Below, piece by piece: positions 24,887 through 25,468 of a stretch of 44,062 bases of DNA (its first letter is position 1; each line of letters starts with the position of its first letter). Both the position numbers and the translations under genes were made by a program. Under the pieces are notes generated by a model. That model was not told where the DNA came from. It saw only the letters and a program-made list of their open reading frames with translations, and ran no database searches. The stretch comes from a virus (lineage: Duplodnaviria; Heunggongvirae; Uroviricota; Caudoviricetes), in IMG/VR virus record IMGVR_UViG_2529292906_000019, positions 1-44,062 of that record, one strand, 5' to 3'.

Positions 24887-25143
24887 AGTTATTCCGTGTG
24901 TAGAGGGTCAGGCTTCACGAGCAGGATTTATCAACAAAGCACGTAGTGATTGATTCCCGTGAGCCTGAAATGAAAAACCAGCGATAGACTGGTAAAATGA
25001 ATGGGTAGCAATATATGAATTTATTCCGAAGATATTATCTTCGGTATAGCCTAAATTTTAAAAGTACTGGATGAGATGGTATTTAGAAAAAAATCATTTA
25101 AAATCATACACGCTGATGTTTTTATAATTTATAAGGAGAGTGT

Positions 25144-25434
25144 ATGAGTAGCATGCTTGACCCACAGCAATACAATAAAGACATGCGAGAAAAGCAAATT
25201 GACCTCATGCTTACTGCGATGGGGCCAACGAATGAGAAGTCGGCTTTTCTTATGGCTTTAATGATTAAACACTCTGATGATCCGGTAGCAACTATCAACG
25301 AGATTGGCGATTGCATCAATGCGGTCTACGCAGCTGGCGAGAACACCGACACTTCCGCGGGTTCAACGTTCAGCGAAATGAAGATCATGTACGGCAGCGC
25401 CGTGAGCATTTACCACAAAATTAAAGATATTTAG
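25144..25434 (+). CDS. moron protein of unknown function (96 aa)
   Basis: On the opposite strand between tR' and the holin; RBS AAGGAG 7 nt before the ATG; TATAAT just upstream; own terminator right after the stop. Confidence 0.55.
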   Translation: MSSMLDPQQYNKDMREKQIDLMLTAMGPTNEKSAFLMALMIKHSDDPVATINEIGDCINAVYAAGENTDTSAGSTFSEMKIMYGSAVSIYHKIKDI

Positions 25435-25436
25435 CA

Positions 25437-25468
25437 AAGTAAACCCCGCATCATCGCGGGGTTTTTAA
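25437..25468 (+). terminator. rho-independent terminator of the moron gene
   Basis: AAACCCCGCATCATCGCGGGGTTTTT immediately after the stop codon. Confidence 0.6.

Follow-up and report, generated by a model that had tools for sequence, protein, structure and literature searches.

What does a small gene do on the opposite strand of a phage late operon, in the gap between the gene of the antiterminator Q and the holin gene? This question is raised by a stretch of 44,062 nucleotides of tailed-phage DNA (IMG/VR record IMGVR_UViG_2529292906_000019, positions 1 to 44,062), here called the window, a lambdoid prophage that carries its late and early-right genes on the minus strand. On the plus strand of this gap lies a gene of 96 amino acids (aa), ORF96, which a first-pass annotation made from the letters of the window had described as an add-on (moron) gene with its own promoter region, a palindrome and a terminator. 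With moderate confidence, we read ORF96 as an independently transcribed accessory (moron) gene that would be expressed in the lysogen, silenced by Q-antiterminated antisense transcription, and active by protein binding.

ORF96, a Protein-Coding Gene under Purifying Selection

The gene and its ribosome-binding site (RBS) are the following:

25144..25434, plus strand: ORF96 coding sequence, 96 aa, ATG start, TAG stop; antisense to the late operon, between Q and the holins
25133..25138, plus strand: Shine-Dalgarno sequence AAGGAG, 5 nt ahead of the ATG and unchanged in the five relatives aligned

Both were found as the first-pass annotation had given them, including the strength of the RBS. A search of 5.8 billion proteins returned homologues of ORF96 in 22 clusters, 94–97 aa long, at 46–100% identity and without internal gaps, all of them named "hypothetical" in the source records. 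Only two further, distant relatives, of 126 and 74 aa, came from an exhaustive profile search of 1.84 billion representatives; the longer one is probably over-called at its N-terminus. A profile rebuilt with these two brought the total to ~31 clusters of 92–97 aa and no new kinds. The few shorter family sequences (46–83 aa) come mostly from very short contigs. All members belong to prophages of Enterobacterales, with Escherichia coli, Salmonella, Enterobacter, Citrobacter, Atlantibacter, Pantoea, Yersinia and Serratia as hosts.

Frequent frameshifts and a lack of coding constraint among relatives had been named in advance as grounds to doubt the gene, and neither was found. In the full-length clusters, frameshifts are absent, and the length of 92–97 aa is held down to 46% identity. 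The ratio of nonsynonymous to synonymous substitution rates (dN/dS) is 0.04–0.28 wherever dS is measurable (Nei-Gojobori method, 15 coding sequences). Between distant members, the synonymous sites are saturated and the proteins still alignable, with invariant residues distributed over all four helices of the protein; R15, E31, K32, S33, D20 and N11 are invariant residues at its surface. On comparative grounds, ORF96 is a real protein-coding gene under purifying selection, far beyond chance.

An Acidic Four-Helix Protein of a Narrow Orphan Family

The AlphaFold2 model of ORF96, built from the family alignment, consists of four helices (residues 7–25, 29–42, 47–64 and 75–93), with a mean predicted local distance difference test score (pLDDT) of 81. 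The isoelectric point (pI) of the protein is 4.7, and its maximum hydropathy over 19 aa is 0.78; there is no membrane segment and, as already stated in the first-pass annotation, no signal peptide. The same holds for the whole family, whose members are all acidic (pI 4.5–5.9) and hydrophilic and lack membrane segments and signal peptides.

Family searches gave little. No Pfam match was found for ORF96, and none was common to more than two of the 22 family members. For ORF96 and the 22 members, NCBIfam and PADLOC returned only noise (for PADLOC, E 0.009–0.017 over short stretches). In a profile search of PDB sequences with the family, the best natural protein had E 0.18, and the best Foldseek matches to the model had E 1.7 (BFVD) and 2.7 (PDB). 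ORF96 is hence a narrow orphan family, with no match in curated families or known folds. The earlier remark that the product belongs to no recognizable family withstood the profile and structure-based searches that had been suggested as a check.

The sole recurring weak match, phrog_243, is the best one of the family in PHROGs (E 0.0024, in five of the 22 members) and points to a DnaB-like helicase. We rejected this candidate, since the likeness comes down to a string that resembles Walker A by chance. In the profile comparison, only residues 17–40 of ORF96 align with the Walker A region of a phage DnaB, at a probability of 1.4%, and the motif GxxxxGK[ST] is not matched: ORF96 reads GPTNEKS, with E for the second G, in an all-helical protein of 96 aa.

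Insertion of the Cassette in the Q-to-Holin Slot

The genes around ORF96 and the extent of the cassette are as follows:

25578..26267, minus strand: Q gene, PF06323 (E 1.8e-94), phage-82-type
24488..24886, minus strand: holin, PF16931
24216..24491, minus strand: second holin, PF05449
23674..24219, minus strand: endolysin, GH108
~25005..25483: inserted cassette (palindrome, promoter, ORF96 and terminator), delimited by comparison with L034 and L033 and by the GC trough

Beyond the endolysin, the minus-strand late operon continues with the small and large terminase subunits and then the portal.

Two prophages show the same site in other states. In that of E. coli strain 53 (L034), only 224 bp lie between the same two modules, Q and holin, and they hold two successive late-strand terminators and no gene. 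In that of E. coli strain GZ2408P (L033), the gap between Q and holin is ~1 kb and carries a different gene of 82 aa, likewise on the opposite strand; no family or defense match was found for this alternative occupant. The flanks common to L034, L033 and the window extend on the holin side from the start of that gene to ...GAGCCTGAAA (about 24970) and on the Q side from the Q stop to the region of the late terminator tR', and the cassette is taken to extend over ~25005..25483 because the common flanks end there. The GC content is 0.305–0.39 over 24900..25299, compared with 0.53–0.59 in the lysis genes and 0.50–0.55 in most of Q. Judged by these alignments, the ORF96 cassette is an insertion in a known cargo slot. 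The empty site, the differently filled site and the drop in GC together bear out the first-pass placement of an opposite-strand add-on gene between tR' and the holin. ORF96 has several of the features by which a moron is recognized: presence or absence among relatives, its own (computed) terminator and a deviant base composition.

The cassette is rare. The gene is found in 13 IMG/VR contigs. Even at low stringency, the cassette is absent from 50,697 GenBank phage records, from 72,556 PLSDB plasmids and from 5,426 complete E. coli genomes, and it was not found in a scan of one genome per species.

Position and Orientation among Relatives

Fourteen distinct genomic backgrounds of the ORF96 family were compared. 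In every one of them, the family member is on the strand opposite to the late genes, and in 12 it is the first gene after Q or after a gene in the position of Q. These 12 Q-position genes are of several kinds: PF06323 in five, DUF1133-type in two, a 133-aa PF06530 protein in one, a PF03589-type gene in L015 and, judged by sequence likeness, a truncated copy of a similar Q in L021, with proteins lacking a family assignment in the other two. In L011, Q and the ORF96 member are separated by a Rha gene and an immunity-like insert, and the most distant relative (74 aa) lies antisense between the tail genes M and L. The holins beside ORF96 members are equally diverse (PF16931, PF16083, PF05106, PF16080 and PF04971-type). 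Such constant antisense placement can reflect selection for an antisense position behind tR' or, equally, descent from one insertion followed by exchange of the flanking modules by recombination.

Extra cargo is sometimes interposed on the lysis side, namely a PipA-family gene, a RelA_SpoT-domain gene or a Dam methylase. The PipA-family (GogA/GtgA-like) gene of the Salmonella loci L028 and L030 (3095..3781, plus strand) is on the strand of ORF96. The RelA_SpoT-domain gene, 348 aa long, is on the late strand of the ORF96 gap in L036 (1036..2082, minus strand) and also occurs in L037 and L038. An Acb2/Tad1-like gene was seen near the lysis genes of L006, and a 149-aa neighbor gene in L028 had no family or defense match.

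In the relatives of the Enterobacter/Atlantibacter type (L012–L020 and L024), ORF96 has no promoter block and lies 37 nt downstream of a same-strand gene of 136 aa (3553..3963, plus strand, in L015). This partner has a coiled-coil N-terminal part and a zinc-ribbon end (CxxC...CxxC), and no family or defense match was found for it in L015. From this arrangement, the two genes look like a two-gene antisense unit.

Upstream Region of ORF96

The 200 nt upstream of the ATG were aligned for five relatives. The elements considered are:

25076..25104, plus strand: candidate core promoter of ORF96, with a -35-like ATGGTA (25076..25081), a 17-nt spacer and the -10 hexamer TAAAAT (25099..25104)
25123..25128, plus strand: TATAAT, a -10-like hexamer, probably not the functional one
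25026..25044, no strand: palindrome CCGAAGATATTATCTTCGG, that is CCGAAGATA-T-TATCTTCGG, perfect (9+1+9, 19 nt), near the left end of the cassette

Their identity to the window in three relatives, L031, L028 and L025, is given in this order:

Core promoter block (25076..25104): 93%, 79% and 76%
Leader (25105..25143): 87%, 82% and 77%
Palindrome (25026..25044): 84%, 58% and 47%
Synonymous sites: ~81%, 60% and 49% (pS 0.19, 0.40 and 0.51)

In the two Salmonella relatives, promoter and leader are well above the synonymous level, and the palindrome is not. Non-coding DNA next to the promoter block is, like the synonymous sites, at only ~45–60%. The hexamer TAAAAT, 45 nt upstream of the ATG, is invariant in all five relatives; the -35 element reads TGGCA in relatives and ATGGTA in the window. 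On this alignment, TAAAAT is likely the best promoter candidate of ORF96, and the transcript likely starts near 25111, with a leader of ~33 nt.

The first-pass annotation had instead proposed the TATAAT immediately upstream of the gene, implying a very short leader. The hexamer is present, and as a promoter it is disfavored because a start ~7 nt downstream would fall inside AAGGAG and because only three of the five alignable relatives keep it (the other two have AATAAT and GCTAAT), while TAAAAT is conserved.

The palindrome, also reported earlier, is there and is perfect; its length is 19 nt rather than 18, and its coordinates had been one base off. It lies at about -85 to -67 from the predicted start of ORF96 and folds as an 8-bp hairpin, with a dG of about -10.5 on either strand and no U-tract on either. 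A perfect inverted repeat with arms of 9 nt or more and a loop no longer than 8 nt arises in 3% of simulated intergenic regions of 691 nt; two are present here. Perfect symmetry is restricted to the window and one near-identical E. coli locus, and L031, an 88%-identical relative, already has two uncompensated mismatches. A conserved repressor operator was considered and rejected: the relatives show neither conservation nor compensatory change, and the window has no second or near copy. The half-sites do not cluster in the immunity region of the window, and autoregulation by DNA binding is unlikely because the product of ORF96 is acidic. In seven more distant cassettes, a strong terminator of the late strand (dG -9 to -17) ends 94–167 nt upstream of the ATG, about where the palindrome lies. 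The palindrome may be a decayed or lineage-specific version of this hairpin, or a lineage-specific protein site.

Terminators and the Late Leader RNA

Downstream of ORF96, and at the other end of the cassette, the following elements were predicted:

25441..25469, plus strand: intrinsic terminator of ORF96, hairpin AAACCCCGC..GCGGGGTTT (25441..25464) and T-run
25478..25509, minus strand: tR'-type late-strand intrinsic terminator, hairpin 25509..25486 and T-run (scanner match, 10 pairs)
25485..25562, minus strand: short IsrJ-like leader RNA of the late promoter, immediately behind the Q stop; RF01393 isrJ matched in full length at 27.9 bits
25594..25566, minus strand: candidate pR', TTGCAG (25594..25589), 17 nt, TATATT (25571..25566), both putative hexamers
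24977..24993, minus strand: weak late-strand hairpin and T-run (scanner match), dG -6.6, z -5.7

The canonical terminator that the first-pass annotation had seen after the stop is present, at a distance of 6 nt and not 3. The dG of its hairpin is -16.3 kcal/mol on both strands, with a z of about -4.1 to -4.2. It was missed by the pattern scanner (the stem absorbs part of the T-run) and was found by folding and by a separate scan of both strands. Every relative examined has an equivalent hairpin behind its stop. Read on the late strand, the hairpin of the window precedes TTACTTTG, and it may serve there as a second late terminator. In five distant cassettes, a late-strand terminator lies 4–16 nt from the ORF96 stop, and three of these five also score as terminators on the ORF96 strand. 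In L036, the stops of ORF96 and Q are only 109 nt apart, so that the ORF96 terminator must double as tR'.

The tR' hairpin itself (dG -17, z -4.3) is ~70 nt after the Q stop and is identical with the 3' hairpin of the IsrJ-like match, which agrees with the earlier placement of tR'. The transcripts of ORF96 and pR', as predicted, are convergent and would end ~10 nt apart without overlap.

The IsrJ-like RNA of the window stays under the gathering score (37 bits): it matches the model in the 14 nt at the 5' end and in the terminator hairpin, but the first hairpin is not kept. By this score, it is a divergent relative and not a threshold member. The equivalent in L031 (1789..1867, minus strand) reaches 44.8 bits, above the threshold, and the isrJ of Gifsy-1 (L040; 3907..3981, minus strand) 100.3 bits; the latter lies behind the isrK-orf45-anrP insert after the same Q family. 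IsrJ may thus be the terminated leader RNA of the late promoter in phage-82-type Q modules. The isrK region after Q in Gifsy-1 (4632..4830, minus strand) matches the Rfam C4 antisense RNA (69 bits) and the a1/b1 target (48.1 bits). These matches suggest that isrK-orf45-anrP is an immunity module of the P1-type c4/antirepressor kind that was inserted behind Q.

At the junction of the cassette with the late leader, the weak hairpin 24977..24993 has the position of the second, stronger late terminator of L034; it is not conserved in L031 or L028. On the holin side, a long-range stem CAGGCTCACG...CGTGAAGCCTG (24895..24968, minus strand; -21.5 kcal/mol, z -2.4) is predicted just upstream of the ribosome-binding site of the holin. 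By manual comparison, L031 keeps this stem with changes on both sides (CAGGAC...GTCCTG). The stem, common to prophages with different first late genes (L031, L028/L029, L033 and L034), may be a conserved RNA element of the late leader.

Comparison with Known Systems

An antisense position relative to the lytic genes is typical of accessory loci (PMC7067206; also PMC2629481). A moron of lambdoid phages is defined as an additional gene that only some relatives carry, with a promoter and a terminator of its own. Patchy presence, a terminator, deviant composition and antisense location in the lytic region, known from lambdoid morons, are all features of ORF96 (PMC7067206, PMC2629481). STMMW_20121 of ST64B is such an antisense moron, supported by transcriptome data, with measured prophage expression, whereas ORF96 is known here from sequence alone.

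Two opposite-strand genes occupy the same slot. The gogA gene of Gifsy-1 (GtgA/GogA/PipA family) is cargo between a phage-82-type Q and a holin, like ORF96, and in L028 and L030 a PipA-family gene and ORF96 share one gap and one strand. GogA, however, is a type III secretion effector protease of ~228 aa and of a known family, whereas ORF96 has 96 aa, is an orphan and shows no sequence similarity to it. In the DLP12 prophage of E. coli K-12, nmpC, an lc-type porin gene, lies on the opposite strand between quuD (a Q homologue) and essD (the holin), with slot and orientation as for ORF96. Its product is an outer-membrane porin with a signal peptide, in contrast to the small helical protein, predicted to be cytoplasmic, that is encoded by ORF96.

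The isrK-orf45-anrP-isrJ locus of Gifsy-1 fills the same gap after the same Q family (antQ), where the window has its IsrJ-like RNA (PMC4825925). It is a c4/antirepressor-type unit on the late strand, whereas ORF96 is on the opposite strand and unrelated to orf45 or AnrP. In tha/ith of the staphylococcal phage 80alpha, a small antisense gene with its own promoter, nested in an operon, forms a lysogeny/lysis switch with mutually exclusive expression states (PMC11087260). ORF96 shares this noncontiguous-operon geometry, as a plus-strand gene between pR'/tR' and the holin with an inferred promoter. The proteins are unrelated, however, and the hosts belong to different phyla. Moreover, it is during lytic growth, once the cI operon of lysogeny has been shut off, that the nested gene of tha/ith is switched on, while the geometry of ORF96 predicts the reverse.

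Proposed Working and Alternatives

As an accessory gene of the lysogen, ORF96 would work as follows. In the lysogen, and as long as Q has not acted, the sigma-70-type promoter with TAAAAT would drive a transcript of ~360 nt with a strong RBS, ending at the hairpin 25441..25464. By analogy with lambda, the late promoter pR' is assumed to fire constitutively; the transcripts from it would stop at tR' as a short IsrJ-like RNA, and tR' would insulate ORF96 from pR'. After induction, Q-modified polymerase would pass both hairpins and run antisense over ORF96 and its promoter. This late transcription would shut ORF96 off, by head-on interference and double-stranded RNA, while lysis is turned on. The product, a small acidic four-helix protein of the cytoplasm, would bind either some host factor or a protein from a competing phage, and the lysogen or prophage would profit from this. 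Protein binding is the most plausible activity because ORF96 is acidic and carries neither an enzyme-like nor a DNA-binding signature.

Several points weigh against this scheme. The promoter, the timing of expression, the silencing by late transcription and the binding of a protein are inferred, and the confinement to the lysogen or early infection, which the first-pass annotation also expected, would follow from geometry only; the case for expression as a whole is built on sequence and geometry. The -35 element of the window matches the consensus at only three of six positions, and the candidate promoter was not called by a consensus scanner. Regulation is not uniform either: the abundant clade L012–L020 lacks the ORF96 promoter and has the gene behind that of 136 aa. 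A large general benefit to the host is unlikely, because ORF96 is rare, being absent from the phage, plasmid and complete E. coli sets. The mode of action, finally, is argued from charge, size and the absence of matches, which is weak negative evidence.

Among the other explanations, a factor directed by phage against phage is unlikely, although part of the evidence fits it. ORF96 would then be a small exclusion or defense protein, silenced on induction to spare its own phage, or an inhibitor of host defense. The architecture is in keeping with a logic of the tha/ith type (PMC11087260), and the slot holds competition- or defense-like cargo in relatives (the RelA_SpoT-domain gene, and the Acb2/Tad1-like gene of L006). 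Small acidic helical proteins are, moreover, typical inhibitors. No PADLOC model rose beyond noise, however, we know of no single 96-aa defense protein that resembles ORF96, and a counter-defense gene should be one of early infection and lie on the early strand rather than antisense within the late region.

It is quite unlikely that the cassette serves mainly as a transcriptional insulator against leaky, Q-independent read-through into the holin in the lysogen, with the protein being secondary. In this view, a promoter directed at pR', with late-strand terminators on either side, would hold back that read-through. Its place next to Q or a Q-like gene in 12 of the 14 backgrounds, across unrelated Q families, would suit such a role, and so would the late-strand terminators on both sides of most distant cassettes and the ORF96 terminator that appears to double as tR' in several. 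Nevertheless, an insulator does not account for the strong purifying selection on the amino acids (dN/dS 0.04–0.28), with invariant residues in all four helices. The empty site of L034 also manages with two terminators and no cassette, and in the own clade of the window, the upstream late-strand hairpin is weak or missing.

Equally doubtful is the broader idea of the ORF96 family as a lysogeny-phase gatekeeper of the late switch, more than passive cargo. The self-insulated module would consist of a terminator that doubles as tR' in several relatives, a convergent promoter and a late-strand terminator upstream, and Q antitermination would switch it off. Its small acidic protein would be active only in the silent prophage, for example as a new exclusion factor made of a single protein or by holding back late or lysis genes from premature expression. 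If true, this would explain the antisense and mostly Q-adjacent placement among Q genes of at least four families and holins of at least five.

Very doubtful is a regulator of the late program of the phage itself, which might, for example, damp Q-dependent antitermination, RNA polymerase or the timing of lysis; its lasting place beside Q would then be explained. The conserved position between the Q side and the lysis cassette speaks for it, as does the same slot of Gifsy-1, in which isrK-orf45-anrP feeds back on the Q-type gene antQ (PMC4825925). On the other hand, the neighboring Q and holin genes come from several unrelated families, which makes a single conserved partner unlikely, and the most distant relative is among tail genes and not near Q. 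The conserved position is also explained by descent and recombination of the flanking modules, and the antisense orientation would stop synthesis of the protein just when the late genes are turned on.

That ORF96 is spurious or decaying, and that the conserved thing is an antisense RNA or spacer DNA, is extremely improbable: the rarity of the gene and its uniformly "hypothetical" annotation would fit, but the length is kept without frameshifts, the amino acids are kept against saturated synonymous sites, the RBS is invariant and the fold prediction is confident.

Other Features of the Window

Two further genes of the lambdoid layout are on the plus strand, the strand of ORF96:

35203..35670, plus strand: CI-like repressor (gene call)
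42297..43382, plus strand: lambda-type integrase (gene call)

The small RNA (sRNA) genes SraC/RyeA and SdsR/RyeB adjoin the integrase gene (43456..43600, both strands; 178.5 and 116.4 bits). The right end of the window reaches this chromosomal locus, and the prophage appears, from these matches, to be integrated at the bidirectional sRNA genes. The locus is a known hot spot of insertion.

A second opposite-strand reading frame of the late region, 127 aa long (22786..23169, plus strand), is flanked by the spanin genes and the gene of the small terminase. It occurs in some E. coli relatives (L001 and L002) and was not called in L003; no significant family or defense match was found for it, only weak beta-helix/NosD matches (E ~0.007). 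Two stretches of ~1 kb, about 27817..28844 and 29556..30670, contain only short reading frames in the window and no called gene in the identical contig L001, and neither a tRNA nor an Rfam family was found in them.

Meaning for Lambdoid Prophages

The slot just downstream of Q in lambdoid prophages carries Shiga toxin, effectors such as GogA, and porins. An antisense moron between Q and the lysis genes is, by its layout, a known kind of feature; what is new here is the uncharacterized ORF96 protein family. As a conserved gene in this slot, ORF96 is a reasonable candidate for a function in lysogenic conversion or phage competition. With no fold relatives known, any phenotype found for ORF96 would establish a new protein family; without one, the gene stays a further hypothetical moron. 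Its constant antisense placement would offer a clean system for the Q-antiterminated silencing of a lysogeny-phase gene.

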